64,000 nt of DNA from Candidatus Coprovivens sp. GTDB taxonomy: Bacteria; Bacillota_I; Bacilli_A; RF39; UBA660. The stretch lies in NCBI GenBank assembly GCA_051892935.1, contig JBJFGS010000010.1, forward strand, positions 4,820-68,819. Direction: 5' to 3'. A program made the translations under genes and the position numbers. Positions 36,376-56,353 of this stretch are shown here, one piece after another; the stretch's first letter is position 1; each line of letters begins with the position of its first letter. The notes beneath the pieces were generated by a model. That model was not told the DNA's origin and did no database searches. It saw only the letters and a list, made by a program, of their open reading frames with translations.

Positions 36376-39300
36376 TTATATTTTTTTCATTCTAGGTTTA
36401 TATTTTTTTATTAATACTACTGATGTAGATGTTAGTATAAATAAGCCACTTATGGTAAATATTGCTATTATTGATGATGTGTCTGGGTTTTCTAGAGATA
36501 TTTCTATAAAAGAAACTTCAACTATGGTATCCTCTGTTACATGTTTTAATGGTTCTATTACCATTTGTTTTTTATCTGTTACTTTGTAATTTATGTTATT
36601 GATTTTTATTGTATCTATTATGTATCCATCTTCAGCAGATATTTTAATTGTGTTTGGTGTTGAATCATCACCATAGTAAAGTGTTTCATCTCCAATAATT
36701 GTACCTCCACCATTACTTACTACTTTAGTAGTTATATTTAAAGTTATTCTCTTATATTCGTATATAATTTCTTGTGTTTCTTCTGTATATGTGTAATTTT
36801 TATTTGTTGGTTCTTTAACAGCAATATATCCATTTTTATTTAAACTTGAACTTATATACTTATCACCAACTAGACCATTAGATATTGTGTCATTATTAAT
36901 TTTTTCTGTTGTATTTTCTAAATAGTGATGAACTATTATTTGTCCTGCTATTTTAATGTAAGTTACTTTTTGAGCTGTAGCAGTTCTTTCTTTATTATCG
37001 AGTTTTATTGTACTAGTTACTTCTGTAGCCATTGTCCTTGAAAGTGGATTTATATCTTCATAAACAATTTTTAAATTTTTTTCCTCACTAATTGTTTGAG
37101 TCGTTAAATCAGCATCAAGATTTGCTTTATTACTTATCCAAGTAATTGTTTTTTGGTCTTGGTTATAAATTCCTCCATCAAGTGATGATTTCGATTCATC
37201 TATAGAATACGGAAGACTCATTATTATTGTACTTGTAACGCTTGAAGAATAATAAGTTATTTTATTTTCGTAGTTTATTTTATAATTTACTTCTTCATCT
37301 TTTTTCTTTATTTCTTCTGGTCCATTTAAAGATATTGTTGTTTGAATTTGGCTATCTTTCTTTTGGTAATAATAAATTACTTCAATATTACTGTCATTTA
37401 CTATTCCTATATAATTATCTGTTTTTTGGTATAATTCATAATTATCAGGAATTTTTATTGATTCAGATGTTTCATAGTTTTCGCCAAAATTCTTTTGGAT
37501 AGTTTCTTGTGGTGCTATAACGTTATTTGTATTGTACTCAAGATATTTTGTGATTATTGTAGAGGTTTTTAGTTTGTAATAATATGTTACTACAACATTT
37601 CCCTTTATTGTTCCTGAACTATTTGAAGGAATTATTGATACTTCATAGTTAGAAGAAATATTAGTTGATGGAGAGGTTTTATATTCTTCACCCCAATAAA
37701 CTAATTTGTTTTCAGTGGCTGCTATTTCTGTTGTTGCTCCTTCAATATAATGTTGAATTGTTAGAGTAGCACTTTTTAATTTGTAGTAATAAATTACTAC
37801 TGTTGAACCTTGGATTGTACCTGTTGCATTTGTAGGTGTACTTACTAGTTCATAGTTTTCACTTATATCAGTAGATGGAGAGGTTTTATATGTATCTCCC
37901 CAATGGACTATTGTTATTTCTGATGGAGATAGTTCTGTAGTAGTCCCCTCGATATAGTGATGTACTATCAATGATGTTTCTTTTAAATTATAATAATAAT
38001 TTACTATGGTATCACCTTTTATTGTTCCACTAGCATTTGCGGGAGTTTTTGATAGTTCATAATTTATAGATATATCTGTTGCTGGTGATGTTGTATATAC
38101 ATCTCCCCAATGAACATTTTTTATAATTGTTTCAGACAATTCAACTTTTGTATTTTCTACATAGTGATGAATTGTTAAGGTAGCACTTTTTAATTTATAG
38201 TAATATGTTACTACTATATCTCCTTTTATTGTTCCTGTTGCATTACTTGGAGTGCTTACTAGTTCGTAGTTTTCATTTATATCTTTTGCAACTTCAGTTG
38301 TATATGCATCGCCCCAATGAACATTTTCTGTTGTAGTTTTTGATAACTCTGTAGTTGTTCCTTCGATATAGTGATGAACTGTTAAGGTAGCACTTTTTAG
38401 TTTATAGTAATATGTTACTACTATATCTCCTTTTATTGTTCCACTGGCATTTGTTGGTGTTCCCACTAGTTCGTAGTTTTCATTTATATCTTTTGCAACT
38501 TCAGTTGTATATGTATCTCCCCAATGAACATTTTCTGTTGTAGTTTTTGATAATTCTGTAGTTGTTCCTTCTATATAGTGATGTACTGTTAAAGTAGCAC
38601 TCTTTAGTTTGTAATAATATGTTACTACTGTGTCTCCTTTTATTGTTCCTGTTGCATTACTTGGAGTGCTTACTAGTTCGTAGTTTTCATTTATATCTTT
38701 TGCAACTTCAGTTGTATATGCATCGCCCCAATGAACATTTTCTGTTGTAGTTTTTGATAACTCTGTAGTTGTTCCTTCGATATAGTGATGAACTGTTAAG
38801 GTAGCACTTTTTAGTTTATAGTAATATGTTACTACTATATCTCCTTTTATTGTTCCTGTTGCATTACTTGGAGTGCTTACTAGTTCGTAGTTTTCATTTA
38901 TATCTGATGCAACTTCAGTTGTATATGTATCTCCCCAATGAACGTTTTCTGTTGTAGTTTCTGATAATTCTGTAGTAGTCCCCTCGATATAGTGATTAGT
39001 TGTTAATATTGCATCTTTTAATTTAATAACAGCATTAATATCACTTACTATTTCTTCTTCAGTAGTAGGAGAATTATTATGTTCTGTTATTAAAGATGTT
39101 TTTCCAGTTGTATCAGCTTTATTACTTCCTGTTAAAGATATTTCATAATCTTCTGGTATTTCAAATTTAATATAATAATTTCCCTTACTTATTTTTTCAA
39201 ATTTATAACTATTATTATTTGTTGTTGTAGTATCAACTAATTGATCATTTTCATCATATAAATTAACTGTTATAGTTGAGGGCATTCTGGTATTTTCATC

Positions 39301-42300
39301 AAAAGGAATAATACTTCCTTCAATAATACGATTTACAATAGTTGTTGATAAACTACTATTTTTTAGTATAGTTGTAGTACTATTACTAGTTAGATATGAA
39401 TTATAAGCAATAATGTCTTTAATTTCAGTATTTGAAGTATCTAATGTATATGAGTACTCAGTACTAGTATATGAATTTATAGATTCTATTTGTATTATAA
39501 GTATTGTTGCATTATTAGGAATGTTATTAGTGTCTAATATTTCAGTCCAATTTCCATCAGTTAGGTCAATATCTTGAGCTGAGTATTTATTGTCTTTTAT
39601 AGTTAAGTTTAAATCATTAAGAGATTTTGTTGTATAGTATACCTTTTGATTAGTATTTAAACTAATATTTTTTATTATATAGTTTCCTTTTATTTGACTA
39701 TTTAATATATTATCTTTAGGTAATATTTCAAGGATTCTTACCTTGTTTAATACAGAACTACTACTATTTCCTATTGTAGTAGTTATAGTTACATCTTCAC
39801 CAATGTCTATTACTTTTTTATCGACAATTTTAGATAGTTGACTTCCTGATAAATTTATTACTTTTATAGTAGATGTTGAACTACGATATGAATATTCATC
39901 TCGTAAATCACCATCTGTAAATATGACTGCTTTAGTTGTATATAATTGATTATTAATAGTATCAGATGATATTTCAGCATTAAATGTTATTTTCTCATAA
40001 TCCGGTGGAGAGCTATTAGTTGTCCAATCTTGATATAACCAAGTAACTATTGTTGTTCCATCTTCATTTATAGTTATGCTTTCAGGTTCTTTATTTGAAC
40101 TATTTTCGACATATGATAATCCTTTAGGTAAAGTTACATGTACAAATACTTCATCTACTATGTGGTTATTAGTGCTTTCCATTGTAGGAGTTACTTCATA
40201 GTTTACAATACTATCTTGAATATCATATGTTGTTTTTTCTTCATTATTTTCAATACTTTTTATTGAAATGCTACTTTGTTCTCCAGTTATTAAAATTGTT
40301 TTACCTATACCCCAATCATTTTCGTTACTTGTAATTTGTCCTAGCTCGTTGTATTTTGTTGGAATATAGTTCGACGTTCTAAAGTTATTTTTTTTAGTCC
40401 TTTCAGCATCTTCATAAGCATATACTTTAACTCTAAATGAGGCGGTTTTACCTATGTTTTCTTCTTTATCTAAAATTTTAAAATAATTATAGTATTTTCT
40501 ATTTGCATCATTTCCTACCATATCAGGATCATCGTAGAAAACAGCTGTTACTGTACCATTGGCAGATGCTTCATCGTATGTATCATACCATGTGAAGCTA
40601 GAGTAATATGAACTATTTAATTCTTGATATGATGTTAGACCACTAGTTGGATTAGCTGTATATATACCATAAGATACTGTTATATTTTCTTTTGAAGGTA
40701 ATTCTCCATTACCATAGGTATATACTGAATACCATGTTGTTCCAATTGATCTAATACCAATTTTATCTGCTTCCCATACTAGTAATACAGTTTGTCCACC
40801 TTCAAAATCGCCATCAATTAAACCATGTATGTTTGCTATATTAAAATATTGACCAATTTCTCTTGATGCATCTCCGTAATTGTTATCCTTTGTACCTAAG
40901 ATATTCCATTTTGTATCATAAGCCCATAACCCATAAGAATAGTTTCCACTTAAATAATTTTCAAATGATAAATTGTAATAATTATCTGATGAATCTGTAT
41001 CATTTATTGAATTTTCACCACTATCGATACTATAATTAGTTCCATCAAGAACTTGGTAACTTGCACTTTCAGCAGTTATATATAAATGATAATCATTTCT
41101 TTGAGTTTGATCGCCATAAAACGGAATGAATAATTCTACATTTCCAGCTAAAAAATAATAGTTATCAGGATTGAATGAATCAGTACTTGCATCATTTGAT
41201 GGTGTTGAAGGAAAAGTATTCCCAACTTTAAAATTATTGAAAGTTACATTTAAAATATTATTATTTAGTGAAGCAGTTATGGTACCTGAATCTACTACAC
41301 TGTTTTTTTCTGTTCCTAAGTCTAGTCTTCCATATGGAAGTCTATGGACTGTTGCGGTATCTTTGATGTTAGGATAATGGTTTTCATTTAACTCACCATT
41401 GATGCTATAAGCTTGAATCATAGTTCCGTTTAATATATCAATAGCATCTTCTGTTTCGGCAGTAATAGTCCCGCTTGTTCCATTTTCTATATTATATCTA
41501 TATTCTATTCCTAAGTTTACACTAAATGTTTCTGATGGATATTCTACTCCTCGTAAATCGGGCATTCCATCTAATTTAGTAAGAGCTACTCCTATTGGAA
41601 CGTTTTTATAACGTCCTTGAACATCTTGACCATTTATTGTCTTTGTACTCTTTTTTAATGTCCCATATTCAGGTTGTAAAACAATATTGTAAGATGGTGT
41701 ACCACTTATTATAAATGGATTTTGGGAATCTTTTATTTTCATACTATCAATTGATGATGATGTATTATCTGGTGAATTTCCTTCCATCCATACTTCAAAT
41801 TCTGGTAACATCGTTTGATCTACTGCTACTTTATGCCCTCCAACTAATACTGTAAATGATAATTCTTGAGTGGCATTTGTAATGTCAATTGTTGAAGGGG
41901 CATAGTATTCGGCTGTTATAATGGTTTTGTCTTCATTGTATTCTATATTATTCATCCAGGCATCTTCTACCCAAGTCAAGTTAATAAGATTTCCTTGATT
42001 TGGTAGTGTAGCTTTAACTTTAATTACTCCACCTGTTAAACCATTAGTTTCTTCTACTTTATTATCAGTATTATTTGGTGATATTGCAACTTCTAATTTA
42101 TATTTTACTTTATCAGATGTTCTAACATAATCATCTGAAGCTGAAATATCATTTCCATTTGTATCTGATGCTGGTGATTCATTAAATGGAACTGTTCCCG
42201 TTTCTCTTTGAACAATTTTGATTTCAGATATCATCATTTTGTTATATAATTCTTGACGATCACTACTTAGTTTTAAGTAATTGATGGTATTTTCAAATAT

Positions 42301-42402
42301 ATTGTTTATTTTTTCTTTATTAAGTATTACTATTGAACTAGTAAAAATTATTAACCCTATTAATATAATTATTTTTTTATTCATCTTTTTCACTAACATC
42401 AC
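36376..42402 (-). CDS. giant surface adhesin with MucBP-like repeats, a Cna-B/SdrD-B-like domain and a C-terminal sorting-signal-like tail
   Basis: About 2000 aa. N-terminal anchor or signal KKIIILIGLIIFTSSIVIL. Cna-B-like TVNLYDENDQLVDTTTTNNNSYKFEKISKGNYYIKFEIPEDYE. Nine HHYIEG...YYYK repeats. Tail NPDTS + hydrophobic segment + KKYKPRMKK. Start uncertain (42402, 42399 or 42384). Confidence 0.85.
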   Translation of the reverse strand: MMLVKKMNKKIIILIGLIIFTSSIVILNKEKINNIFENTINYLKLSSDRQELYNKMMISEIKIVQRETGTVPFNESPASDTNGNDISASDDYVRTSDKVKYKLEVAISPNNTDNKVEETNGLTGGVIKVKATLPNQGNLINLTWVEDAWMNNIEYNEDKTIITAEYYAPSTIDITNATQELSFTVLVGGHKVAVDQTMLPEFEVWMEGNSPDNTSSSIDSMKIKDSQNPFIISGTPSYNIVLQPEYGTLKKSTKTINGQDVQGRYKNVPIGVALTKLDGMPDLRGVEYPSETFSVNLGIEYRYNIENGTSGTITAETEDAIDILNGTMIQAYSINGELNENHYPNIKDTATVHRLPYGRLDLGTEKNSVVDSGTITASLNNNILNVTFNNFKVGNTFPSTPSNDASTDSFNPDNYYFLAGNVELFIPFYGDQTQRNDYHLYITAESASYQVLDGTNYSIDSGENSINDTDSSDNYYNLSFENYLSGNYSYGLWAYDTKWNILGTKDNNYGDASREIGQYFNIANIHGLIDGDFEGGQTVLLVWEADKIGIRSIGTTWYSVYTYGNGELPSKENITVSYGIYTANPTSGLTSYQELNSSYYSSFTWYDTYDEASANGTVTAVFYDDPDMVGNDANRKYYNYFKILDKEENIGKTASFRVKVYAYEDAERTKKNNFRTSNYIPTKYNELGQITSNENDWGIGKTILITGEQSSISIKSIENNEEKTTYDIQDSIVNYEVTPTMESTNNHIVDEVFVHVTLPKGLSYVENSSNKEPESITINEDGTTIVTWLYQDWTTNSSPPDYEKITFNAEISSDTINNQLYTTKAVIFTDGDLRDEYSYRSSTSTIKVINLSGSQLSKIVDKKVIDIGEDVTITTTIGNSSSSVLNKVRILEILPKDNILNSQIKGNYIIKNISLNTNQKVYYTTKSLNDLNLTIKDNKYSAQDIDLTDGNWTEILDTNNIPNNATILIIQIESINSYTSTEYSYTLDTSNTEIKDIIAYNSYLTSNSTTTILKNSSLSTTIVNRIIEGSIIPFDENTRMPSTITVNLYDENDQLVDTTTTNNNSYKFEKISKGNYYIKFEIPEDYEISLTGSNKADTTGKTSLITEHNNSPTTEEEIVSDINAVIKLKDAILTTNHYIEGTTTELSETTTENVHWGDTYTTEVASDINENYELVSTPSNATGTIKGDIVVTYYYKLKSATLTVHHYIEGTTTELSKTTTENVHWGDAYTTEVAKDINENYELVSTPSNATGTIKGDTVVTYYYKLKSATLTVHHYIEGTTTELSKTTTENVHWGDTYTTEVAKDINENYELVGTPTNASGTIKGDIVVTYYYKLKSATLTVHHYIEGTTTELSKTTTENVHWGDAYTTEVAKDINENYELVSTPSNATGTIKGDIVVTYYYKLKSATLTIHHYVENTKVELSETIIKNVHWGDVYTTSPATDISINYELSKTPANASGTIKGDTIVNYYYNLKETSLIVHHYIEGTTTELSPSEITIVHWGDTYKTSPSTDISENYELVSTPTNATGTIQGSTVVIYYYKLKSATLTIQHYIEGATTEIAATENKLVYWGEEYKTSPSTNISSNYEVSIIPSNSSGTIKGNVVVTYYYKLKTSTIITKYLEYNTNNVIAPQETIQKNFGENYETSESIKIPDNYELYQKTDNYIGIVNDSNIEVIYYYQKKDSQIQTTISLNGPEEIKKKDEEVNYKINYENKITYYSSSVTSTIIMSLPYSIDESKSSLDGGIYNQDQKTITWISNKANLDADLTTQTISEEKNLKIVYEDINPLSRTMATEVTSTIKLDNKERTATAQKVTYIKIAGQIIVHHYLENTTEKINNDTISNGLVGDKYISSSLNKNGYIAVKEPTNKNYTYTEETQEIIYEYKRITLNITTKVVSNGGGTIIGDETLYYGDDSTPNTIKISAEDGYIIDTIKINNINYKVTDKKQMVIEPLKHVTEDTIVEVSFIEISLENPDTSSIIAIFTISGLFILTSTSVVLIKKYKPRMKKI
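37359..39015. repeat. eight tandem 207-bp (69-aa) coding repeats inside the adhesin gene
   Basis: 38227-38442 is base-for-base identical to 38641-38856 (offset 414 bp, two units). Flanking units are progressively diverged. A ninth isolated copy lies at ~36745-36960. Confidence 0.9.
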
Positions 42403-43709: not shown

Positions 43710-44225
43710 TTATTTTATGAAACCATTTACAACTACTTTTGACTCGTTAACTACTATAAAGGCATTTTTATCAATATGTCTTAAAATACGTTTTAAATCA
43801 CCTAAATGACGACTATTTAGAGTTATAAAAAGAATTTTGCTGTTTTCTTCTGATAGATTGTTTATTGTATCGACAACTGAAACACCAAAACCTTCTAATC
43901 TAATTTTTTCAATATTTTCAGGAGTAGCTTTTGTCGTTATAACTTCAACGCTTATTAAGCTGTTTACGAATTTGTTTGATATAAATGATCCTAGCATAGT
44001 ACCTGTAGCATAGCCTCCGGCATAAGCAACAGCTATCCATATACTATTAACTCCTGTATTTAAAGCTTCTCTTGCTATTATAAACCAGATAAATACTTCA
44101 AAGAAAGCAATAATTCCCGCTGTTTTAGTTTTTCCTTTGACAGTATGAATCATTCTTATCGTTCCTAGTGTTACATCAATTATTCTTGCACAAAATATTT
44201 TTACGCATAGTAAGAATAATGTCAT
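43710..44225 (-). CDS. UPF0316 family membrane protein (DUF5698 + DUF2179)
   Basis: KIFCARIIDVTLGTIRMIHTVKGKT...IAFFEVFIWFI, and the C-terminal small domain. Confidence 0.75.
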   Translation of the reverse strand: MTLFLLCVKIFCARIIDVTLGTIRMIHTVKGKTKTAGIIAFFEVFIWFIIAREALNTGVNSIWIAVAYAGGYATGTMLGSFISNKFVNSLISVEVITTKATPENIEKIRLEGFGVSVVDTINNLSEENSKILFITLNSRHLGDLKRILRHIDKNAFIVVNESKVVVNGFIK

Positions 44226-44500
44226 TATTTACTCGCTCCTTTTATTATTGCTATTAATATTATTAGCAATAAAACTCCTATTATAAGAACTATTATGTTA
44301 CCAATTTTTTTATCGCTATTATAATTATCATTATTGGAAGCACTTTTATAAAATGCAGTATCTTTATTACGATATTGATTCCAACGTGGATCAAGCATTT
44401 CGCGCATTTCTTTTTGTTGAGAAATAGGAATCATTCTTCCGCATCCAGGGCATGCTCCACCTTTTGTTGGAAGGGCATGTCCACAATATTTACAGTTCAT
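44225..44500 (-). CDS. zinc-ribbon membrane protein
   Basis: MNCKYCGHALPTKGGACPGCG, and C-terminal TM IIVLIIGVLLLIILIAII. ATG 44500 behind AGGTGA. Stop overlaps the next ATG (TAATG). Confidence 0.65.
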   Translation of the reverse strand: MNCKYCGHALPTKGGACPGCGRMIPISQQKEMREMLDPRWNQYRNKDTAFYKSASNNDNYNSDKKIGNIIVLIIGVLLLIILIAIIKGASK

Positions 44501-44547
44501 ATATATCACCTAGAATAATTTTAACATAAAAAAAAGATTAGTGAATA

Positions 44548-45650: not shown

Positions 45651-45773
45651 AGCATCATACCCTTTCTATATCTATATTTTAACATATATTACTATTTTAT
45701 GCAAAAGCTATTTAGGATATTTGCCTATATCTTACTAATAATGTTTACATATTATATATCGGAGGTATTAAAT

Positions 45774-46169
45774 ATGTTTTTTGATGATATAATATTTGAT
45801 TTTAAAAATACTGATAATGTTGATTTATTTAGTTATGAAGATGGTTTTATGTATGGAAATATGTTTAAAAATGAATACGATTCGTATAAAAACTATAAAG
45901 TTGCTAGATTAGAAAGTAATACTGATAAGGGAGATTTACTTTTAAAGATATATCAATATGATTTTGCTTTAAATGATTTGTCTTTGTATTTGGATTTACA
46001 TCCAGATGATAAAGCTGTATATGAGTTGTTTAAAAAGTACACAGATAAACAAAATGAATATGTTAGTTTATATGTTAAAAAGTATGGTCCTATGGAGTTA
46101 GATGATTCACCATATAGTAGTTATATGTGGGATGAGGGGCCATGGCCTTTTATAGGAGGTGTATTTTAA
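45774..46169 (+). CDS. cotJB: spore coat protein CotJB with a CotJA-like N-terminal motif
   Basis: GGAGG RBS at 45761. LLLKIYQYDFALNDLSLYLDLHPDDKAVYELF...KKYGPM...WDEGPWPF (CotJB). N-terminal DGFMYGNMFKNEYDSYKNY resembles the CotJA GT(L/I)(W/F)P.LY.PY motif. Confidence 0.8.
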   Translation: MFFDDIIFDFKNTDNVDLFSYEDGFMYGNMFKNEYDSYKNYKVARLESNTDKGDLLLKIYQYDFALNDLSLYLDLHPDDKAVYELFKKYTDKQNEYVSLYVKKYGPMELDDSPYSSYMWDEGPWPFIGGVF

Positions 46170-46729
46170 TGTATAAATATATGAAAAAGTTGAATTATCC
46201 TGTTAATGTAAGAAGAAAGGATTTAAGAATGGCTAAATATTTGATTACACAATTAGGAGGTCCATCTGGTGAATTAGGAGCTGCTTTAAGATATTTTAGT
46301 CAAAAGTTTACTATGCCTGATGAAAAAGGACAAGCTTTGTTAAATGATATTGCTTGTGAAGAATTAGGACATTGTGAGATGATTGCAACTATGTTTAGTC
46401 AATTAGTTAGAGATGCTTCTTTAGAGGAAATCGAATGTGCTGGTTTAGGTGGATACTTTACTGATCATGGTAAAGGAGTTTATCCAGTTGATGCATCAGG
46501 CAATCCATTTAGTGCATTAACTTTTAGTTCGTCTGGTGATGTTTTAGCTGATTTAAGTGAAGATATGGCTGCTGAGGAAAAAGCTCGAGCTACTTATGAA
46601 AATTTAATTGATATGACTGATGATGAGTCTTTACGAGGTCCCTTACTTTTCTTAAGGCAAAGAGAAATTGTTCATTTTAATCGTTTTAAAGAATTATATG
46701 ATTATTATAAGAGAAAATTAAAAAAATAG
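46169..46729 (+). CDS. cotJC: spore coat protein CotJC (manganese-catalase family)
   Basis: ITQLGGPSGELGAALRYFSQKF...ACEELGHCEMIATMF...EEKARATYENL. ATG overlaps the cotJB stop (TAATG). Confidence 0.9.
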   Translation: MYKYMKKLNYPVNVRRKDLRMAKYLITQLGGPSGELGAALRYFSQKFTMPDEKGQALLNDIACEELGHCEMIATMFSQLVRDASLEEIECAGLGGYFTDHGKGVYPVDASGNPFSALTFSSSGDVLADLSEDMAAEEKARATYENLIDMTDDESLRGPLLFLRQREIVHFNRFKELYDYYKRKLKK

Positions 46730-46745
46730 CATTGCTATTTTTTTA
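46721..46745. terminator. bidirectional terminator overlapping both convergent stop codons
   Basis: aaaaaatagc-att-gctatttttt. Confidence 0.65.
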
Positions 46746-48501
46746 ATGTTTTTTTAGTCAATTCATTTGTTAACGTTAAAAATGATGATTCTTCTAAAAT
46801 AGATTGTGATACTAGTGATGGTATTAAATAAGACTTATTTCCTTGTACTTGTTCAAAATTACGTAAGAATTTTGGACGTGATATTATGATATCTCCTATT
46901 AGATAGATATTGTCTATTTGATATTCTTCATCCATAGCTTTTACGATATCGCTATCAACTATTGTTGTAATCTTATCTCCTGATAAGAAGTTTATACCAT
47001 ATGATGAAATTGTGTTTGGTAAATAGTCATCTAAACTTGAATCATCACAAATAAATTTGCTTTCAGCTGTAACTGATTTTTTTAAAAAATGACTCGATGT
47101 TTCATATTCTTCACCAATATTTCTAAAGATTATAATTCTCTTAATAGTATTTAAAGGGTTTTCTGTTTCACATATACTTATAAATAGTGATTCTGATATT
47201 TCATTTTCAAGTAATAAATCATAAATATTTATATACTCATAATGACACAATAAAAATATATAATTATTTTTTGTAAGTTTGTATTCTTTTAGTACTGATA
47301 AGATATTTTTTATTTCTTTTATATCTTTTAAAAGAATCCTATCATCATAGAAAATATTTTGAAAATCAATTATATTTTTTAATATTTCATAATTAGATAT
47401 TAATTGTTGATAATTAGAATCTATTATATCTAGATTTTCTGATAAAGTTTGTTTAGACAATATATTATTGTCTAATAGAAATGATAGTGTTTTTAATTTT
47501 TCATCATCTAAACTGATTATGTAATTATAATAAAGTGTTAAAACATTATTTAGTGGTAGTCCTAAAGATATTAAAAATTCTATTCTTTCTGTTATATTAG
47601 CAATTGATTCAAGTTCTGCTAGTTTTTCATTTAATGAATATGGATTTAAATTATGATTATATAAGTATGTTGTAAGTTTTGAACGATTTTTCTTACTTGT
47701 AATTTCTTGTTCTTCTATATCTAAATCTTTTTTCAGCTTATAAAGATTATCTAATACAATTTCGTATAATAGTTCTAGTAATCTTGGATCTAGAAATTGA
47801 TGCCAATCAGATGGAATTTCGTATATTCCCAGAATACTTTCATCATTTATTCCTTTTATTACTTCGGTAGTTACTTCAATTCTTTTACTAGATGCATATT
47901 GACGAAGTTCATGATCATCTGTATCTCTTTTTAAGATTTTTTGAGCAACATCTATAAAATTATAGAATCTACTATTTTTGTATATATTATTAATCAATTG
48001 AATTCTTTTTACCAATGGTAATTTTTTAGAATATTCTGGAAGATTTAAAAGTTCTTTTTTTAATTTTAAATATTCATACATACACATATATACTAATTTC
48101 ATATTGTATTCTGTGAATATTGGTGTTAATCCTAATTCAGTAATTATACTTAAGTACTTATAATCTTTTAACGATCCATCATCATTAATTCCATTTTGCA
48201 TTTCACTTAGACGATGACCATCTTTATCATAGGTCCATGAATTTACACTTTTTTTAACTTCTTCACAATATGATAATGTTTCGTCAAAGCTTAATTTATT
48301 ATCATTTACTAAAATTAAAAATGGAACAAATATATCGTAATTACTTAATTGACATAGTTCAGTTTTATCTGCTTTGGCAGCTCTTTTTAATACTTTTTCA
48401 ACATATTTTTTTACTTTTTCTGGTCCTTCTTCGGCTTTTATGATTTTTGCTTCTGTTAAAGTATCTTCAGCAATTTTTAGTATTTCGTTTATTTTTACCA
48501 T
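46735..48501 (-). CDS. 588-aa orphan cytoplasmic helical protein, second gene of a two-gene operon
   Basis: ATG 48501 lies 1 nt after the upstream TAA; the track uses TTG 48513. No TM or signal peptide. Leu/Ile/Asn/Lys-rich with repeat-like helical stretches. Confidence 0.7.
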   Translation of the reverse strand: MVKINEILKIAEDTLTEAKIIKAEEGPEKVKKYVEKVLKRAAKADKTELCQLSNYDIFVPFLILVNDNKLSFDETLSYCEEVKKSVNSWTYDKDGHRLSEMQNGINDDGSLKDYKYLSIITELGLTPIFTEYNMKLVYMCMYEYLKLKKELLNLPEYSKKLPLVKRIQLINNIYKNSRFYNFIDVAQKILKRDTDDHELRQYASSKRIEVTTEVIKGINDESILGIYEIPSDWHQFLDPRLLELLYEIVLDNLYKLKKDLDIEEQEITSKKNRSKLTTYLYNHNLNPYSLNEKLAELESIANITERIEFLISLGLPLNNVLTLYYNYIISLDDEKLKTLSFLLDNNILSKQTLSENLDIIDSNYQQLISNYEILKNIIDFQNIFYDDRILLKDIKEIKNILSVLKEYKLTKNNYIFLLCHYEYINIYDLLLENEISESLFISICETENPLNTIKRIIIFRNIGEEYETSSHFLKKSVTAESKFICDDSSLDDYLPNTISSYGINFLSGDKITTIVDSDIVKAMDEEYQIDNIYLIGDIIISRPKFLRNFEQVQGNKSYLIPSLVSQSILEESSFLTLTNELTKKTLKK

Positions 48502-48502
48502 A

Positions 48503-49522
48503 TTACTCACCAACCTTTTTTGATAAACTCATTCCATCTAATTGGGAAAAAATTTCTTCTACGAATTCAGCTTGCTCAATATGAAAGTCCGGATTATTGT
48601 AATTGTTTTCAATGTAGTCTTTGCATGAATAATATCGTGATAATGCTTCTTCATATTCATTAGATATCCTTGTTGATTTTTGTTTATCTTTCATAAAGAA
48701 AGAACATATTACAATGACATTTCCTGTTATAACATAAAGAATTCTAATACCATTAGGATGTTTATATTCATAGATTTTTTCTTGATATCCTTCAATAGGT
48801 TTAGTGTCTTTTGTTCTAAGAAAATAACCATCTACTATTTTTTCAAATATCAATCTTATTTCTTTATATCTTTCAGGATATTCTATAATGTCTTCATATA
48901 AGTAGGTTGATTTTTTATTGTTTGGTACCAATATAATATTTGAATATTCTTGTGAAAGTTCTAATGTGGTATTCTCTGCTTCTTCAAATTCTTTTATTGT
49001 TACCTCAAGTACCACTTCATATGTATTTAGTCTTTCTTGATATAAACTAATATCTGTTGTGGGATTTGTTAGAATTGTTTTTCTTATTTCTCTTTTTGTA
49101 TCAAGAATAAGTTTATATATTTGCAACTTTAGTAGTTTTAAATCATCTGGAGATAGACTTCTTAATATATTTTTACTTTCTTCTGAAAACGGATCATAAA
49201 TTATTTTGTTTATAATTTCTGATAAGTCTTTTACTTCTCTTGGTATTGGTATTTTTTTGGATGGTTTAATAATGAAAATAGTTGGAGTTGCAATTATAGC
49301 AGTTGCTCCTGTCATTGATTCTAACATTTTCTTATTACTTTCTCTTTTATTCTCGATGAAATCTAAATTGCTTAAAGCAATGGCTCTTGTACATTCTACT
49401 ATTTCTTGAAGAGTTGGATCTTCTATTTGATCATATAAAAAAGAAGTAGGATTACTTATGTATTCGTTACTATTTTCAATTTTTTTTTCAAATCTTTCTA
49501 CCCTATCAAATTCATTTGCCAT
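48503..49522 (-). CDS. 339-aa protein with a C-terminal RelE/ParE-superfamily (phage Gp49/HigB-like) domain
   Basis: KPIEGYQEKIYEYKHPNGIRILYVITGNVIVICSFFMKDKQKSTRISNEYEEALSRY fits the Gp49/HigB pattern. The N-terminal ~210 aa are unrecognised. AAGGGGGA RBS. Confidence 0.7.
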   Translation of the reverse strand: MANEFDRVERFEKKIENSNEYISNPTSFLYDQIEDPTLQEIVECTRAIALSNLDFIENKRESNKKMLESMTGATAIIATPTIFIIKPSKKIPIPREVKDLSEIINKIIYDPFSEESKNILRSLSPDDLKLLKLQIYKLILDTKREIRKTILTNPTTDISLYQERLNTYEVVLEVTIKEFEEAENTTLELSQEYSNIILVPNNKKSTYLYEDIIEYPERYKEIRLIFEKIVDGYFLRTKDTKPIEGYQEKIYEYKHPNGIRILYVITGNVIVICSFFMKDKQKSTRISNEYEEALSRYYSCKDYIENNYNNPDFHIEQAEFVEEIFSQLDGMSLSKKVGE

Positions 49523-49548
49523 ATTAATCCCCCTTTTTTGTTTGTTTT

Positions 49549-49576
49549 ATTATACTTATAGAATTGTTTTTGTCAA
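49549..49576 (-). promoter_or_regulatory. near-consensus sigmaA promoter
   Basis: TTGACA, 16 nt, TATAAT, about 25 nt upstream of the start codon. Confidence 0.7.
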
Positions 49577-49589
49577 TTTCACCACTAAA

Positions 49590-49612
49590 AAAAGGTCTTT
49601 TTAAGACCTTTT
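49590..49612 (-). terminator. intrinsic terminator
   Basis: aaaggtctt-aaaa-agaccttt followed by T5 on the minus strand, after 49623..50459. Confidence 0.8.
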
Positions 49613-49622
49613 ACGATTATTA

Positions 49623-50459
49623 TTAGATTCTACTGAATTTGTTATTTTTCTTAGCTAATGTTATAGCGCTTATTGCAATTAATGCACATGCAGCTAATAG
49701 AGCATATGAAGCAAATGCTCCTGTCTCAGCAAATGTTCCATCTTCTTTATAGTGAATTTCTTTACATTTATATTGTAGTTGTGTATCAGAACCACAATTA
49801 TTAGCATTAGTACCATCATTTCCACATGATGTATAGTCTGCATAATTTTCTTTTTCAGGAACTCTCCATACTTTTACACACACTTCACCACATTCGTTTC
49901 CTGTTGCATTTTCATCTAATCCAACAAGGATAGCACCAATAGTTCCATATCTATCTTGTAATATACCAGATTTTATACCAGTGTTCTTAATTGTACTTGG
50001 AGTAAATGCATTTTGAGTTACGCTATTTTTGGTATAGAATATACCGCAACCAAATGATGAAACTTTTATACTAGAAGATATGTTAGTATCATATGCACAA
50101 GAAAAACTTTTTAATTCATCAGGCATATCATCTTGTGGTGTTATTTGTGCCGTAGCTGATGTTGCGTCTGCCAAAGTAGAGTTTGAATTCGTTACTAAAT
50201 ATTGAGTTCCAACTAACTTTAAATATTTTGTTGTGTAAATATAGTTAATATATCCATTAACTGAAGCAGTTGCATCTTCAGATGGTACTCCAATGATATA
50301 ACATGTTGATCTTCCACCTTTTTCTACATTAGCTGGATCACAAACTATATCTGTGTTTGATAGCGAAAAACCTGCAGCTTTAACAGTTGTCATTCCACAT
50401 AGAATAAATGTGCTTATTGCTAGAATAGACAACATAAATAATTTTTTAAATTTTTTCAT
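49623..50459 (-). CDS. secreted Cys-rich protein with a C-terminal sorting-signal-like tail (FAETG)
   Basis: Signal peptide MKKFKKLFMLSILAISTFILCGMTTVKA|AG. Tail FAETG-AFASYALLAACALIAISAITLA-KKNNKFSRI. Confidence 0.75.
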   Translation of the reverse strand: MKKFKKLFMLSILAISTFILCGMTTVKAAGFSLSNTDIVCDPANVEKGGRSTCYIIGVPSEDATASVNGYINYIYTTKYLKLVGTQYLVTNSNSTLADATSATAQITPQDDMPDELKSFSCAYDTNISSSIKVSSFGCGIFYTKNSVTQNAFTPSTIKNTGIKSGILQDRYGTIGAILVGLDENATGNECGEVCVKVWRVPEKENYADYTSCGNDGTNANNCGSDTQLQYKCKEIHYKEDGTFAETGAFASYALLAACALIAISAITLAKKNNKFSRI

Positions 50460-50535
50460 AATAACCTCTCCTATAAATATTCTTCCTTATTCTGATTACA
50501 TTATAACATGTTTTTATATATTGTGTTAATTTTTT

Positions 50536-50563
50536 TTGAAAATTTTACATTTTATGGTATTAT
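50536..50563 (+). promoter_or_regulatory. sigmaA-type promoter of the sortase operon
   Basis: TTGAAA, 16 nt (TGg extended -10), TATTAT. Confidence 0.55.
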
Positions 50564-50601: not shown

Positions 50602-52158
50602 ATGAAGAAGATTACAGTTTTAATTAAGGATAATACTCTTATATTTAAATATCGTACTAATAAACCGGTTGAACCTAATTTATTAAATACTAATGTTATA
50701 TCTAATAACGAGTTAGTGTTTAGTGATGAATATATTGCTAATAATACTAAAATAGTTGGATTATTTATTTCTGATTTAGCTAAAGAAAAAGAAATAAAAG
50801 ATATATCTGTATCTACTAACGAATTAGGTGAATTAGTTTTAGATGTATTAAAAAGATTATCTAATATAGATTCATTTATAGTTACTAGTGATGAAAATGT
50901 TTCTTATTCTTTATGTGACAAGATTATAAAAAATAGAAATATAAAAAAATTAAATTGTTATTCTATCCCTCAATTCTTAGTTGAAAATTTAGACAAACAT
51001 AATATTATGGTCGAATCGAGAAATGAAGTGTTATTTACAAGTAATTTTATGGCATGTAACAATTTAACATCTTATTCAAAAATATATTATAAAAATAATA
51101 TAAAAATAAATCCCGTTCTATCTGATGATGATTTATTAGATTTAAAATCTTTTTGTATTATTAATAAATACTTAAAAGTTATTCATTTTGAAAATTATTC
51201 TTTAGATAATATAAAGAAAGTTGTCGAAGTATTAAAAGAATGTAAAGAAAAAAATATTATTTTGGAGATACATGATGATTTAGATGATAACGAAGATATT
51301 TCTGAATTAAAGTCTTTAAATAAAGAATTAAAATCTAAATATAAAATTAAAATTTCTTTAGTATATTCTAAGGATTATTTAGAAAATAATTATTTACAAC
51401 AAATTATTTTTACAACCTTAAAAATATGTGCATTAATAATATTTGCTATAGTTGGTTCAGTATTTGGATATATTTTATATAATAATTACCAATCAGAATC
51501 GAAAATTAATTCTATTATGGAGGAACTTCACGTTATAAAAGATAGAGTTGATACTGATGAAGAAGTATCTGATAGTACAAATAGAATTATTATAAACTCT
51601 TATGATAAGCTACTAGAGGTTAATTCCGATATGGTTGGATGGATAATTGTTAAAGGTACTAAAATAGATTATCCTATTGTTAGAACGACTGATAATGGAT
51701 ACTATTTACAAAGGAATTTCTATAAAGAAAAAGATTATAATGGTTGGGTATTTATGGATTATCGTAATAATATTGATGTATTAGATGATAATACTATAGT
51801 ATATGCTCATAATAGATTTACTAGTGGTGTAATGTTTGGAACACTACCTAATATAAGAAAGAGTAATTGGTATAAAGATTCTTCTAATTATGATATAACT
51901 TTTAATACATTATATATGAATGGTACTTGGAGAATATTTTCGTATTATGGAATTGAAGTTACGAGTGATTATTTAGTAACTAATTTTTATGATAAGAACG
52001 AGTATCAAAACTTTTTAAATATGATTACTGATAGAAGTGAGCATAAATTTGATACGAAAGTTACAACTGATGATAAAATACTTACTCTATCTACTTGTTT
52101 AGATGATAATAAGAGGTTTGTTGTTCATGCAGTATTATTAACTGATAATAATTCTTGA
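50602..52158 (+). CDS. srtB: class B sortase with a ~270-aa N-terminal cytoplasmic extension
   Basis: C-terminal MVGWIIVKGTKIDYPIVRTTDNGYYL, VYAHNRF, TLSTC, RFVVHAVL. TM IIFTTLKICALIIFAIVGSVFGYILY at aa ~268-293. AGAGGTGG RBS. Confidence 0.85.
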   Translation: MKKITVLIKDNTLIFKYRTNKPVEPNLLNTNVISNNELVFSDEYIANNTKIVGLFISDLAKEKEIKDISVSTNELGELVLDVLKRLSNIDSFIVTSDENVSYSLCDKIIKNRNIKKLNCYSIPQFLVENLDKHNIMVESRNEVLFTSNFMACNNLTSYSKIYYKNNIKINPVLSDDDLLDLKSFCIINKYLKVIHFENYSLDNIKKVVEVLKECKEKNIILEIHDDLDDNEDISELKSLNKELKSKYKIKISLVYSKDYLENNYLQQIIFTTLKICALIIFAIVGSVFGYILYNNYQSESKINSIMEELHVIKDRVDTDEEVSDSTNRIIINSYDKLLEVNSDMVGWIIVKGTKIDYPIVRTTDNGYYLQRNFYKEKDYNGWVFMDYRNNIDVLDDNTIVYAHNRFTSGVMFGTLPNIRKSNWYKDSSNYDITFNTLYMNGTWRIFSYYGIEVTSDYLVTNFYDKNEYQNFLNMITDRSEHKFDTKVTTDDKILTLSTCLDDNKRFVVHAVLLTDNNS

Positions 52159-52174
52159 AAACGGAGGGCTTACA

Positions 52175-55100
52175 ATGAATATTAGCGATTTAAAAGACAT
52201 ATTAGAAGATTTGGTACATACTAAATTATATGTTTCTTCTATTACAACAAAGGAACAACAACATAAGTATAAAGAAATGAAAAAGTATTTGAAGAAAAGT
52301 GATAACTTATTAGAAGATATAAAAACTATTTTAGTTACGAGAAATAATGAAAACTTTTTTGCTTATGATGAATACATTACCGATTTTTTAGTTAATGCAA
52401 ATATAGATATAAAATTAGAAATTTTAAATAACCAATCTAAATACGAAGATATAATAAAAAATAATAATGTATATATTAGTATTTGGGACTCATTAAATAA
52501 TAAAGAAAGAATTACTTATTTAGAAAACAAGAAAAAATATACGGATATAGATATTTTATTAATTAATTATATTCTAAAAGATTCCGGAAATTTTAAAGAT
52601 AATATTGTATTATGTGAAGTACTTAATAATGCAGATATAAGAAATAAAATTCCTCCATTTTCTATTGAAATAAATTATACTTATAACCTACTTTCTTATA
52701 TTAATTTAAGTGATTTTGAAGTTTGTAGTATTCTAACAAAAGATTCATATACTAAACTATTATTAAAAAAATGTAAGAAATTTGATGACTTTCTACAGAT
52801 TTATGAAAGTAATAACGCAATATATAATTTAATACTTAATAATAGTTTGGTTTTTAATAATGCAGATAATAAAAGTATTTATAAGTTTATATTAGATAAT
52901 CCTAATTTTATAGGCAAGTTTAATAATAAATATTTGGATTTATTTAATATATTGGAGATTACTAAAATAAGTAAATTACCTACTTTAGATAATGATGCTT
53001 TTAGTGCTATTATTCAAAAATTATATAAGTTAAATCCTGATGAGGCAGATAACTATTTTAGTGAAATTAATCTAAAAAAATGTTCAAAACATAGTATTAG
53101 TATTTATCCTTTTGAATATATAAATAATGAATTACAAGAAAAGATATTTAATACTTATAATCTATTTAATAAGTTTATTGATACGATTATGATAGAAGCT
53201 ATTAATAATAGATTTGATGAAGAAGATATAGTTAATATATTGAGAAATGATACTTTTATAAATGATACTAGTTCATATGGTATTGAATTGTTATTAAATA
53301 AACTTAGCTTTAAGTCAGCTTTTAATATGTTGCAAAGAAAGAATATTTTTAACAAAATAAATAATCTACATGTAAAACTTGATACTAAAGATTCTATTTT
53401 CTTTAAAGGTTTCTTAGATAGTCCTGTTTTAGTTAAAAAATCAGAACATAATATGATATATGAAATGTTAGGATTATTAAATAAAGATGATGTTTTATAT
53501 TATATTACTCTTCCATATATTTTAAATGAACTAAGTAATTATGAAATAATTAATTTGGCAATTTCTAAAAACATAAAACTCACAGATTTATATGATAATA
53601 CTGAATTAAAAAATGTTTTAAATATAACAGATTTAATAAGTTATATAGATAAATTATTTGAAACTAATATTGATTTAAATATATTTAAAAATAAGTCTAT
53701 ATGTAAAAAGATTTTTAATTTAAGTGACAAACAATTTAATGATATTAATTTTGATGAAGTAAACTATTTATTTGAAACTGTAAGAATGAAATCTTTATTA
53801 TCAAAACAAGATACTAAAATAACTATATTAAGTTATAAGAGTGTTTTAGCTAGTTATTTAGTTTTAGGACTTGATGAGACAATAAAACTAGTTAATGATG
53901 GTAATAAAGATATTACTCTTGAAGAAATAAAACAATTACAAAATGAAATTGTAAGTGAAAAAATATTAATATTTAAAGAAAATAATTCAGCTATATTCCA
54001 AAATATGGCTAAAAAAATAATTTCTAATTTATATGATATTGGTGAATGCGAAGATATAAATGAGTTTTCTAGAAGAGTTAGAAAGAATGCTTATTTAGAT
54101 AATGTTATATATTTAATATTGGATAATAATTTTGATACTTATAATGGTGTTACTAATAAATTTTTTGGATTTATAAAATATAGAACATATGATGAATATG
54201 CTGCTAAAAAAGAGATATATGATTATAGTAAAGCTTTTACTGAATGTTATATATATAATAAAATTAAAGAATATAATGAGGAATTTGAAAAAATAATTCT
54301 TGTTAATTTTAAACCTAAAGAAAGTGTTATATATAGTAAGAGAAAAGAAATAGGTAAAGAATTCTTAAATAAATTAAAATTTAAATTATTTGTTAGAGCT
54401 CTTACTGATCCTAATAAAGATATATATGTTAATTATTTTAGAGATGGCTATCCTATTAATGAAGTGAAAAATAAATATATTAAGTATTTAGCTAATGAAG
54501 ATGTTGATTTTGAAAGTATTTTAGAACATGTTTTATTACCTATTGTTAATGATAGATTTGATAAAGAGAATTGTCTTTGTAAATTAGGAATTAATAAGCC
54601 TAAAAATACTGATGAATACTTAAAATACTTAGATGATTTAAAAACGGTAACTGAACTTAATACTTTAATAGATAAATATAAAATTAATTATAGCTTTGAA
54701 CAGGTAATATCTATTATGAATTATATTTGTTATGGTAATAAACTAGATGTTAAATTGAAGAAAAGAGAATTACTTAAGTTAAAAAAAGCTGCAAACTTAG
54801 TTTTGGGATTAACCGGGGAAATATATGTAGATAAGTCAGCTTCTAAGTTTATATATAAAGATAATATGGATGTATATAATATAGAAGAAATCATAGAATA
54901 TAGTAATTATTTAAAAATTCTTGATGATATAGTAAATAAAACTTATAGTTATGTTAGTAAAAATATGGATAGTGAGAAGATAAAATCAGCTTTTTCACAC
55001 GATTATTTTAATGCTATTAATACAGATAATTGTGTTTTTCCTATTTCTAGTAAATATTATGAACCTAGAAGAAGAGTTTTATCTATAAACGATTTAGAAG

Positions 55101-56353
55101 TTGTATTTAATGGATATGATCTTAGTATATATAAGGAATTAGATGATTCTTTAAAACATTTCTTATTTGAAGAAAAAAACCTTATTATGGTTGCTGATGG
55201 ATATTATAAAGGTATTGTAGATAATTTAGGTATTATTATTTCAAAATGGGATAAAATAATTGAATTTGTTAAGGAATTAGATGAAGATATTACAAAATTA
55301 ACTTTGATTAGTATCGAGAATATTTTATCTCTAATTAATTTTGAAGATAATATTTTAGCTAAATCAATTAGTAAAAATATTATTAAATCAATATATGAAG
55401 ATGGATATTATGAAGTTAATGATTTAAACAAAAGAATTAATATGTTAGTTGATTTATTTAGAGAGTCTTATAAAAGAGTTACTAGTACTGTTCCTTATCT
55501 ATGTTATAAAGATGATATATATAGAATTGAAATATTAGATAATTATAATCAAGATATACTTAAAACGATAAAAGGTTCTTTATATAAGGTTGGAACTATC
55601 GGAAATGATTTCTTACATTATTCGATATTAAATAAAAATGGTATACAAATTGGTATATATAAAGAAAATGAGCTAGTAGCTAAAATATTAGGTATAAGAA
55701 ATGGAAATACAGTATACTTAAATGCTTTAGAGGGAGAAAAAAATACTGAATATAATGAATTACTAAGATTATTTGCTAATGAACTAATTAGAATTACTAA
55801 AGATGATATAGAACCGATATTGTATGTTACTATAGTAAATAATGATGTTTATAGTAGTAGAAATGGATTAAAAATCGATACTACTATGTGCCCTATTATA
55901 AATAATCCTATTAATAAGGTGTATTATGATTACGAGAAGTTTACTGAATATAAGAATTTATTAGATATAGATGATATGTATACTAATTATAAGGATAATA
56001 TTAGTACTTTACTTGCTAGTGACAATGTTGTTGATAAAAATAATTTTAAATATTATGATGCTGATGATAAGTATTATAGAAGAAGAAATAGTATTGTTAG
56101 ATTGAGTAATAATATTGGAGAAGAATATTTAAATAAGATTGATACTATATTATATTTATGTAAATTAGAAGATGAAAGTATCGATATTAATAATATTACT
56201 TTAAGTATGATTAATACTATTTATTTAGGAGATGACTTTGTATTATTTGTAACTAATAGAGATAATATTTTGAAGTTTGTTTTACCATATGATGAAAGAG
56301 CGGCAAAAGAAGTTGAATTATTATTGATACAAATAAAAGAAGGAATTGTTTAA
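52175..56353 (+). CDS. 1392-aa orphan cytoplasmic protein
   Basis: GGAGGG RBS, 16 nt after the sortase stop. Uninterrupted ORF. No TM, signal peptide, P-loop or other recognisable catalytic motif. Extremely N/K/I/L/D-rich. Confidence 0.75.
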   Translation: MNISDLKDILEDLVHTKLYVSSITTKEQQHKYKEMKKYLKKSDNLLEDIKTILVTRNNENFFAYDEYITDFLVNANIDIKLEILNNQSKYEDIIKNNNVYISIWDSLNNKERITYLENKKKYTDIDILLINYILKDSGNFKDNIVLCEVLNNADIRNKIPPFSIEINYTYNLLSYINLSDFEVCSILTKDSYTKLLLKKCKKFDDFLQIYESNNAIYNLILNNSLVFNNADNKSIYKFILDNPNFIGKFNNKYLDLFNILEITKISKLPTLDNDAFSAIIQKLYKLNPDEADNYFSEINLKKCSKHSISIYPFEYINNELQEKIFNTYNLFNKFIDTIMIEAINNRFDEEDIVNILRNDTFINDTSSYGIELLLNKLSFKSAFNMLQRKNIFNKINNLHVKLDTKDSIFFKGFLDSPVLVKKSEHNMIYEMLGLLNKDDVLYYITLPYILNELSNYEIINLAISKNIKLTDLYDNTELKNVLNITDLISYIDKLFETNIDLNIFKNKSICKKIFNLSDKQFNDINFDEVNYLFETVRMKSLLSKQDTKITILSYKSVLASYLVLGLDETIKLVNDGNKDITLEEIKQLQNEIVSEKILIFKENNSAIFQNMAKKIISNLYDIGECEDINEFSRRVRKNAYLDNVIYLILDNNFDTYNGVTNKFFGFIKYRTYDEYAAKKEIYDYSKAFTECYIYNKIKEYNEEFEKIILVNFKPKESVIYSKRKEIGKEFLNKLKFKLFVRALTDPNKDIYVNYFRDGYPINEVKNKYIKYLANEDVDFESILEHVLLPIVNDRFDKENCLCKLGINKPKNTDEYLKYLDDLKTVTELNTLIDKYKINYSFEQVISIMNYICYGNKLDVKLKKRELLKLKKAANLVLGLTGEIYVDKSASKFIYKDNMDVYNIEEIIEYSNYLKILDDIVNKTYSYVSKNMDSEKIKSAFSHDYFNAINTDNCVFPISSKYYEPRRRVLSINDLEVVFNGYDLSIYKELDDSLKHFLFEEKNLIMVADGYYKGIVDNLGIIISKWDKIIEFVKELDEDITKLTLISIENILSLINFEDNILAKSISKNIIKSIYEDGYYEVNDLNKRINMLVDLFRESYKRVTSTVPYLCYKDDIYRIEILDNYNQDILKTIKGSLYKVGTIGNDFLHYSILNKNGIQIGIYKENELVAKILGIRNGNTVYLNALEGEKNTEYNELLRLFANELIRITKDDIEPILYVTIVNNDVYSSRNGLKIDTTMCPIINNPINKVYYDYEKFTEYKNLLDIDDMYTNYKDNISTLLASDNVVDKNNFKYYDADDKYYRRRNSIVRLSNNIGEEYLNKIDTILYLCKLEDESIDINNITLSMINTIYLGDDFVLFVTNRDNILKFVLPYDERAAKEVELLLIQIKEGIV

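Follow-up and report, generated by a model that had tools for sequence, protein, structure and literature searches.

A conserved two-gene operon in Candidatus Coprovivens

We analysed a 64,000-nucleotide (nt) stretch of the genome of Candidatus Coprovivens sp. (contig JBJFGS010000010.1; hereafter the window), which carries on its minus strand two adjacent genes, here named A and B. Gene A (48503..49522) is an open reading frame (ORF) of 339 amino acids (aa) and encodes a multidomain protein with a HigB/Gp49-like domain in its C-terminal part. Gene B (46735..48501), a 588-aa ORF counted from its ATG, encodes the obligate partner of A, an acidic, predicted all-helical orphan protein. An earlier reading of the same DNA (the original prediction) had described both ORFs and the gap of one nucleotide between them, and we find them as described. 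The junction reads GAG TAA T ATG, with the stop codon of A at 48503–48505 and the ATG of B at 48501. Translation of B could also begin at a TTG (48513), but the orthologues favour the ATG.

The close spacing of the two genes recurs throughout the family. Across 22 loci, the stop of A and the start of B are arranged as TAAnATG, as TAATG or as an overlap of 1–17 nt, and a Shine–Dalgarno (SD)-like AGGTGA or GGAGG lies 7–10 nt ahead of the start of B in all 22 of them. In the window, the SD of gene B is embedded in the last codons of A, which encode KKVGE (AAGGTTGGTGAG, 48506..48520, minus strand). This tail of protein A is disordered, and it is conserved (as KKVGE, KGGK and similar) because it encodes the SD of B, an instance of dual coding. 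Genes A and B are translationally coupled.

Upstream of gene A lies a sigma-A type promoter, TTGACA-16-TATAAT (49576..49549, minus strand), which matches the consensus at 12/12 positions and is the sole match of this quality in the 7.5 kb scanned. Downstream of it, ahead of gene A, follows the ribosome-binding site (RBS) AAAGGGGG; the SD site of gene A, read from the sequence as AAAGGGGGA, occupies 49528..49536 on the same strand, and a G-rich SD is kept in the orthologous loci. Promoter and G-rich RBS had both been pointed out in the original prediction, and both stand. A promoter match of 10–12/12 is kept in 17 of the 17 loci checked (the window and 16 others), and its distance from the ATG of A is the same across loci, the −35 element lying at about −40 to −60. 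The 16 others include the remote loci L017, L019, L021, L022 and L023. The spacer sequences differ between loci.

The gene preceding A encodes a 278-aa protein and ends in an intrinsic terminator (49590..49612, minus strand), a 10-bp perfect inverted repeat with a U-run that folds in RNA at −9.8 kcal/mol (z = −4.1). Because of this terminator, A–B form their own transcription unit. The terminator is the only inverted repeat in 49500–49640, and no operator-like palindrome was found at the promoter. An Rfam scan of 44000–52500 gave zero matches at E ≤ 0.1. At the other end of the operon, the stop codons of B and of the convergent cotJC are 5 nt apart (46729..46735), which leaves no room for separate terminators.

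The impression in the original prediction that both genes are more AT-rich than their surroundings is marginal. A has 26.3% GC and B 23.0%, and the window averages 26.8%; the GC content at third codon positions (GC3) of both genes (0.144 for A, 0.109 for B) falls within the neighbours' range of 0.10–0.20. Since GC3 is like that of the neighbours, horizontal transfer by composition was rejected.

Protein A contains a predicted RelE/ParE-fold domain of the Gp49/HigB type

Residues 194–307 of A (48602..48943, minus strand) are predicted to form a RelE/ParE-fold domain of the Gp49/HigB type, based on a fold model, Foldseek, a recurrent Pfam match and hhalign. An AlphaFold2 model of A was built from a 43-sequence alignment, with a predicted local distance difference test score (pLDDT) of 80. 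In this model the domain has the topology beta1-alpha1-alpha2-beta2-beta3-beta4-long alpha3, comprising a strand at 195–198, helices at 207–213 and 216–231, antiparallel strands at 250–254, 259–266 and 269–277, and the long helix at 286–307.

When the whole model of A was compared with the PDB using Foldseek, the top matches were Streptococcus pneumoniae HigB (6af4_A) and Mycobacterium tuberculosis HigB1 (7awk, 7nbu_Y), with target template modelling (TM) scores of 0.58–0.63, a probability of 1.0 and a best E-value of 1.2e-3. Members of the RelE/ParE superfamily made up 44 of the 50 top matches, with RelE, YoeB, YafQ, ParE and Cami1 among the later ones.

The original prediction had expected a match of the C-terminus of A to the Pfam family Gp49 (PF05973). 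In a scan with a lenient cut-off, PF05973 was indeed the commonest weak match among the homologues, found in 11 of 43 close and 3 of 10 remote members of the A family. The best scores were about 16.5 bits (E-values of 0.004 to 0.04), and all were below the gathering threshold of 23.9 bits; the window protein itself gave no match to this family even at E ≤ 10. The same lenient scan applied to the B family as a control gave scattered noise only. An hhalign comparison of the A family with M. tuberculosis HigB1, using the sequence of 7awk_A except for its K95A mutation, gave P = 4e-4 to 1.2e-3 over 57–78 columns. Above threshold, neither A, nor its halves (including the C-terminal 147 aa alone), nor B matched anything in Pfam, NCBIfam, PHROGs or PADLOC, and a comparison of the A family sequence profile with PDB sequences found no RelE. 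The fold search, the recurrent Pfam match, the profile alignment and the conservation of motifs and active site converge on a predicted Gp49-type HigB domain, and uphold the RelE/Gp49 resemblance of the C-terminus of A that the original prediction had proposed.

The putative active site is conserved

The catalytic/mRNA pocket of HigB-TAC, which is M. tuberculosis HigB1 (Rv1955), consists of K58, E66, R68, N73, R77, F93, K95, Q98 and K99 (PMC9098466). Toxicity is lost when alanine replaces K58, R68, R77, K95 or K99 and is strongly reduced in N73A, and R68, R77 and K95 have been equated with RelE K54, R61 and R81 (PMC9098466). In the hhalign alignment, the counterparts of these pocket residues in A are K241, E252, K254, N257, R260, F276, K278, Q281 and K282.

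A comparison with the HigB active site had been suggested in the original prediction, and it comes out in favour of the resemblance: in addition to the presence of the pocket counterparts, R260 and K278 are invariant in 48/48 sequences. In this 48-sequence alignment of A, which reaches down to 15–20% identity, the only invariant columns are N52, R260 and K278; R260 is the counterpart of HigB1 R77, and K278 that of HigB1 K95. E252 is conserved in 43/48 sequences, K or R at position 254 in 38/48, and F276 in 41/48. Within the close family, the pocket positions are invariant or conservatively substituted except for K254 (T in 4/43) and Q281 (D or N in 5/43). Conservation in A is highest in the RelE core, where the mean pairwise identity is 65%, compared with 21–38% for the N-terminal parts. 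Such a pattern is expected of a working nuclease or of a precise mRNA binder, and the domain may well be catalytically competent. The domain is neutral to basic, with an isoelectric point (pI) of about 7.6–7.8; that of HigB1 is 10.2.

The RelE-fold domain is flanked by acidic helical regions

The remainder of A is predominantly helical in the AlphaFold2 model. Residues 1–72 (49307..49522, minus strand) form an acidic N-domain with helices at 2–17, 25–32 and 38–72 and a median pI of 4.7. The long helix 38–72 carries N52, the residue that is invariant in all 48 homologues, and the domain probably has a coiled-coil or oligomerisation role around this residue. A sequence-profile search of the PDB with A returned designed coiled coils only, which matched the N-terminal helix. 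Residues 73–100 (49223..49306, minus strand) are a poorly conserved linker with a mean pairwise identity of 21% and a pLDDT below 50 at positions 80–92. A second acidic helical domain spans residues 101–190 (48953..49222, minus strand), with helices at 101–109, 114–122, 125–152 and 159–189, an identity of 38% and a pI of 4.7. No Pfam match and no LXG or WXG domain was found in residues 1–192.

Behind the RelE core, residues 308–330 (48533..48601, minus strand) form an extra, very acidic C-terminal helix (311–328 in the model; median pI 4.05). It bears the conserved motif NP(D/E)F.IEQ.E, with F313 kept in 42/48 and Q317 in 40/48 sequences, and is a candidate autoinhibitory or partner-binding element. 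No transmembrane segments were predicted in A or in B, in agreement with the original prediction for B, and A also has no predicted signal peptide.

B is a large, predicted helical protein of an orphan family

B belongs to a family of 107 homologue clusters, mostly of 569–630 aa and unnamed in all sources. Its AlphaFold2 model has a pLDDT of 90 and is all-helical, apart from a small beta-hairpin at 532–541. Comparison of B with the PDB by sequence profile gave noise only, and Foldseek searches of the PDB and BFVD returned nothing with a probability above 0.35. There were zero matches to Pfam and NCBIfam, and neither a helix-turn-helix (HTH) nor a ribbon-helix-helix (RHH) domain was detected.

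The original prediction had described B as repeat-like. A repeat architecture, mTERF-like or other, was considered and rejected: an hhalign self-comparison revealed no repeats, and no mTERF appeared in Pfam or Foldseek. Most of the invariant residues of B are hydrophobic or aromatic, and B may thus be a scaffold and not an enzyme. The median pI of B is 5.25. The contrast between the acidic B and acidic flanks of A (pI 4.0–4.7) on the one hand and the neutral-to-basic RelE domain on the other resembles the charge complementarity of toxins and antitoxins, a likeness that is only suggestive.

A and B are paired throughout their range and occupy chromosomal sites

Homologues of A fall into 87 clusters at 90% identity, nearly all of 323–357 aa, with few fragments. 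A hidden Markov model search of 1.84 billion representative proteins returned 86 relatives of A at E ≤ 1e-3, mostly of 305–370 aa and aligned over their full length; none of them was a Gp49 protein standing alone at about 110 aa. Short RelE-only versions (P0238, P0256) proved to be frameshift-split genes in low-coverage contigs, with B still downstream. A word-indexed search with the broad alignment A3 recovered only the already known close family. The named sources of A include Candidatus Coprovivens and metagenome-assembled genomes (MAGs) labelled "uncultured Bacilli", and one remote cluster includes a Mycoplasmatota MAG.

The same gene order is common to 16/16 loci of the Coprovivens clade, across A identities of 68% down to 37%. 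It runs from a 1392-aa orphan and a class-B sortase, both on the opposite strand, through a 278-aa surface protein, A and B to cotJC and cotJB, which are convergent on B, and on to DUF6568 and a SpoU methylase. Universal conservation next to cotJ had been named in the original prediction as evidence that would speak against it. We find cotJC/cotJB adjoining the pair in 14 of the 16 clade loci, cotJ being missing in L003 and L004, and the remote pairs at other core sites. Within the clade, this evidence largely does speak against the original prediction. Candidatus Coprovivens excrementavium has an additional stretch of about 1.9 kb between B and cotJC (L015, 2820..4713); at the other loci the gap is about 5–20 nt.

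The remote homologues of A (E-values from 1e-10 to 1e-4) are found at other core chromosomal sites: between addAB with a low-molecular-weight phosphatase and rplU-rpmA (L017), between nusB-xseAB and spoIVB/spoIIM (L022), and near femAB, tadA and rpsO-pnp (L023). B lies downstream of A at every locus with enough sequence, among them 16/16 close loci and L017, L019, L020, L022 and L023. The downstream orphans at these remote loci measure about 570–655 aa, and their homology to B is supported in 4/5, by hmmsearch for L023 (E = 1.6e-72), L019 (2.4e-27) and L020 (5.7e-25) and by hhalign for L017 (E = 6.5e-6 over 393 columns).

No relatives of A–B were found in 50,697 phage records, 72,556 plasmid records or IMG/VR. 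A search of PADLOC-DB v2 at E ≤ 0.1 with A, B and three neighbours was equally empty, and no defence, CRISPR or cas genes were seen near A–B in the loci examined, so that the association with defence islands raised in the original prediction is not borne out. The neighbours of A–B loci are instead cotJ, SpoU methylase, sortase, nusA/infB, addAB, rplU, xseAB and pnp. A metagenome scan with the neighbouring sortase for sites without A–B returned three loci only. As judged from these sequences, the A–B pair is inherited vertically and is chromosomal and non-mobile.

A–B combines features of known RelE-type systems in a new arrangement

The predicted fold of A is closest to Gp49-type HigB (PF05973; M. 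tuberculosis HigB1, 7awk and 7nbu; S. pneumoniae HigB, 6af3/6af4), including the long C-terminal alpha3. The motifs shared between A and HigB are (I/L)xE(L/Y)(R/K), then RiLF/Y, then F(M/Y)K..QK(T/S). As in higBA, the arrangement is bicistronic, with the toxin-like gene first and tight coupling. However, HigB is a stand-alone protein of about 100–125 aa, whereas the 339 aa of A include about 190 aa of N-terminal helical domains and an extra C-helix. HigB is also far more basic than the A domain, which stays below the Pfam threshold. In higBA, the partner is a small XRE-HTH protein, HigA, of about 100 aa; in A–B it is a 588-aa helical orphan, without a SecB-like chaperone. The higBA systems are patchy and mobile, often residing on plasmids, prophages or islands, and are autoregulated via operator palindromes, whereas A–B is vertical and syntenic and its promoter has no palindrome and unconserved spacers.

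In architecture, A comes closest to larger proteins with a RelE-type domain, namely Cami1 and the multidomain BECR toxins. Cami1, a CARF-RelE protein and ribosome-dependent RNase ancillary to type III CRISPR (8phj, 8phb), carries its RelE nuclease at the C-terminus of a larger protein, as does A. Its structure on the 70S ribosome (PDB title) indicates that an N-terminal extension is compatible with ribosome binding. Unlike Cami1, A lacks a CARF domain, its N-terminal 190 aa being all-helical in the AlphaFold2 model. Cami1 also has no B-like partner, and A–B has no CRISPR genes nearby; outside the RelE part, the Foldseek alignment of Cami1 to A is poor, with a root-mean-square deviation of 6–18 Å.

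A survey of multidomain BECR toxins describes further proteins in which, as in A, a RelE/ParE domain is part of a larger protein and may be regulated by domains attached or adjacent to it, namely gp49-HTH, PtuZ (PIN'-YoeB of ptuXYZ) and ToxM (Gerdes, 2025; PMC11980606). These systems were proposed as defence modules with antitoxin, ATPase or nuclease partners (PMC11980606). The survey, which began from Pfam members, a set that does not include the A family, lists no architecture of the form helical/coiled-coil–Gp49–acidic helix with a helical partner of about 600 aa (PMC11980606). Finally, the LXG toxins of the type VII secretion system (T7SS) share with A–B a helical N-terminal region, a C-terminal BECR-type fold and a tightly linked downstream gene. 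They differ in having an LXG domain, a polymorphic C-terminus and a small immunity protein, whereas A–B lacks LXG and has a conserved C-terminus, a large partner and a single vertical locus.

Genes in the neighbourhood of A–B

The 278-aa protein encoded upstream of A (49623..50459, minus strand) is secreted; it has a signal peptide and, at its C-terminus, a conserved sorting signal consisting of xxTG, then (A/N)F(A/T)SYA(I/L)LAAGALIAISA, then AKKNNKF-R(I/V). Divergent from it, a class-B sortase (50602..52158, plus strand; TIGR03064, E = 4e-50) has an N-terminal cytoplasmic extension of about 270 aa and a transmembrane segment. The two are probably a dedicated sortase–substrate pair. The 1392-aa orphan (52175..56353, plus strand) begins after a 16-nt gap behind the sortase, has 20% GC and gave no match in Pfam, NCBIfam, PADLOC or PHROG. 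Its synteny with the sortase holds in every Coprovivens-clade locus long enough to include it.

On the other side of the operon, the cotJB and cotJC reading frames overlap at 46142..46169; a cotJA was not noticed. A 94-aa protein (44225..44509, minus strand) combines an N-terminal zinc-ribbon-like CxxC...CxxC motif with a C-terminal transmembrane helix, and an 85–87-aa gene occurs in the syntenic loci. Further away, between the rimP-nusA-infB region and a beta-lactamase-family gene, a 2008-aa protein (36376..42402, minus strand) with MucBP and SdrD-B-like domains is probably a surface adhesin.

A–B as a vertically inherited module built on a predicted HigB-type domain

On balance, we lean towards A–B being a vertically inherited module in which a HigB-derived, ribosome-dependent mRNA endonuclease is controlled by B and kept for a cellular job. 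The effector would be the C-terminal Gp49/HigB-type domain of A, which appears to retain the basic and acidic residues that HigB toxins use on mRNA in the ribosomal A site. Its putative nuclease activity would be gated by the protein's own acidic domains and by B. B, in turn, would bind A and control it as an inhibitor, an adaptor or a signal sensor, and would thus fill an antitoxin role with neither homology to antitoxins nor a detectable DNA-binding domain. The cellular function would most likely be conditional translation shut-off or mRNA surveillance. The pair has one fixed locus in the clade, is also found together in distant lineages, has strong predicted expression and is absent from mobile elements; we therefore propose that the toxin domain has been kept for a cellular function. 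The part of the original prediction that saw a repurposed toxin domain in a larger protein, joined to a novel, large, non-HTH partner, is supported by the fold, the pairing and the absence of an HTH in B. Should the pair have a regulated growth-arrest or defence role after all, the system concerned would be a chromosomal one, fixed by vertical descent.

The original prediction went on to propose a toxin–antitoxin (TA) or abortive-infection (Abi) defence candidate. In such a system, A would be a growth-arresting HigB-type toxin, and B a giant antitoxin that doubles as a phage sensor and sets A free upon infection. The order of the genes, toxin before partner, and their tight coupling are like those of higBA, the catalytic residues of A appear intact, and an acidic partner accompanies a neutral-to-basic RNase domain; multidomain RelE-type defence proteins do exist, as Cami1, PtuZ and the gp49-HTH fusions demonstrate (PMC11980606). 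We nevertheless regard this explanation as rather unlikely. The locus is fixed and syntenic over 16 loci at 37–68% identity, the composition is native, the phage, plasmid and viral-contig collections lack the pair, and neither a PADLOC match nor a neighbouring defence gene was seen. B has no detected HTH or RHH, and the promoter has no operator palindrome. As a mobile or accessory element, the candidate finds no support in these data. A further alternative, that the RelE-fold domain of A is no longer a nuclease and has become a ribosome- or RNA-binding or structural element (in hibernation, ribosome rescue or an assembly with B), strikes us as decidedly unlikely. It has precedents in M. tuberculosis HigB2 and HigB3, which are non-toxic but may have kept an interaction with ribosomes (PMC9098466). 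In its favour, too, the domain is much less basic than HigB1, and strong constitutive expression would be easier to tolerate if it were inactive. Yet its two invariant residues, R260 and K278, are those at the positions equivalent to RelE R61 and R81, and E252, K/R254 and F276 are kept as well, a pattern that catalysis or precise binding of mRNA phosphates would preserve.

Two other explanations appear much weaker. DUF4176 is T7SS-associated, and a DUF4176 gene follows B directly at L023 (11802..12095) and L028 (5165..5455), in one remote clade, and stands beside none of the other pairs; together with a very weak Foldseek match of A to a T7SS chaperone at rank 48, this could point to a secreted polymorphic toxin of the LXG/T7SS type, with a C-terminal BECR toxin domain and B as its immunity protein. 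We consider this very improbable: the N-terminal part of A has no LXG, WXG or other Pfam match, signal peptide and transmembrane segments are absent, the toxin domain is the most conserved and not the most variable part of the protein, B is 3–5 times larger than typical immunity proteins, and the pair is single-copy, syntenic and vertical. We likewise give hardly any credence to the notion that the RelE/Gp49 likeness is due to chance or over-interpretation and that the domain has an unrelated alpha/beta fold. All sequence statistics are sub-threshold and the best Foldseek E-value is 1.2e-3, but four independent lines converge on Gp49-type HigB, and the B family, as a negative control, shows no such recurrence.

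Several points weigh against a HigB-derived endonuclease with a cellular role. A stays below the threshold of every curated model, the Foldseek E-values are borderline, and all structural evidence for A comes from a predicted model with a predicted template modelling score (pTM) of 0.41. The register of E252/K254 differs between two hhalign runs and needs a gapped alignment; the only pocket residues independent of register are K241, R260 and K278. Sampling is limited, with a lineage known from MAGs only and 11 GTDB species found by narrow search patterns. The promoters of classical TA systems are also strong, so that strong expression is not diagnostic, and long vertical persistence could in principle reflect addiction.

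To our knowledge, nearly all RelE/HigB RNases described so far are either small mobile toxins, neutralised by small antitoxins that bind DNA, or effectors linked to CRISPR, as is Cami1. What is new here is that a known catalytic fold, as predicted, occurs among other domains than before and beside a new partner, and that its lifestyle is atypical in being non-mobile. We entertain tentatively, and with clear doubt, a more far-reaching version of the cellular role, in which a HigB-type A-site mRNA endonuclease would have been domesticated as a core, constitutively and strongly expressed translation or mRNA-surveillance factor with B, of about 600 aa and a new helical fold, as its obligate partner, passed on vertically in uncultured gut Bacilli and Mycoplasmatota-like lineages and acting as a housekeeping, ribosome-associated RNase, neither as a TA system nor in defence. 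Were A–B instead a TA or Abi system fixed in the chromosome, B would represent a new type of antitoxin or sensor. If A proves active, the pair would be an example of the taming of a toxin fold for use by the cell, B would be a new protein controlling a ribosome-dependent nuclease, and a lineage-specific player would be added to mRNA decay or translation control in these poorly known gut bacteria.

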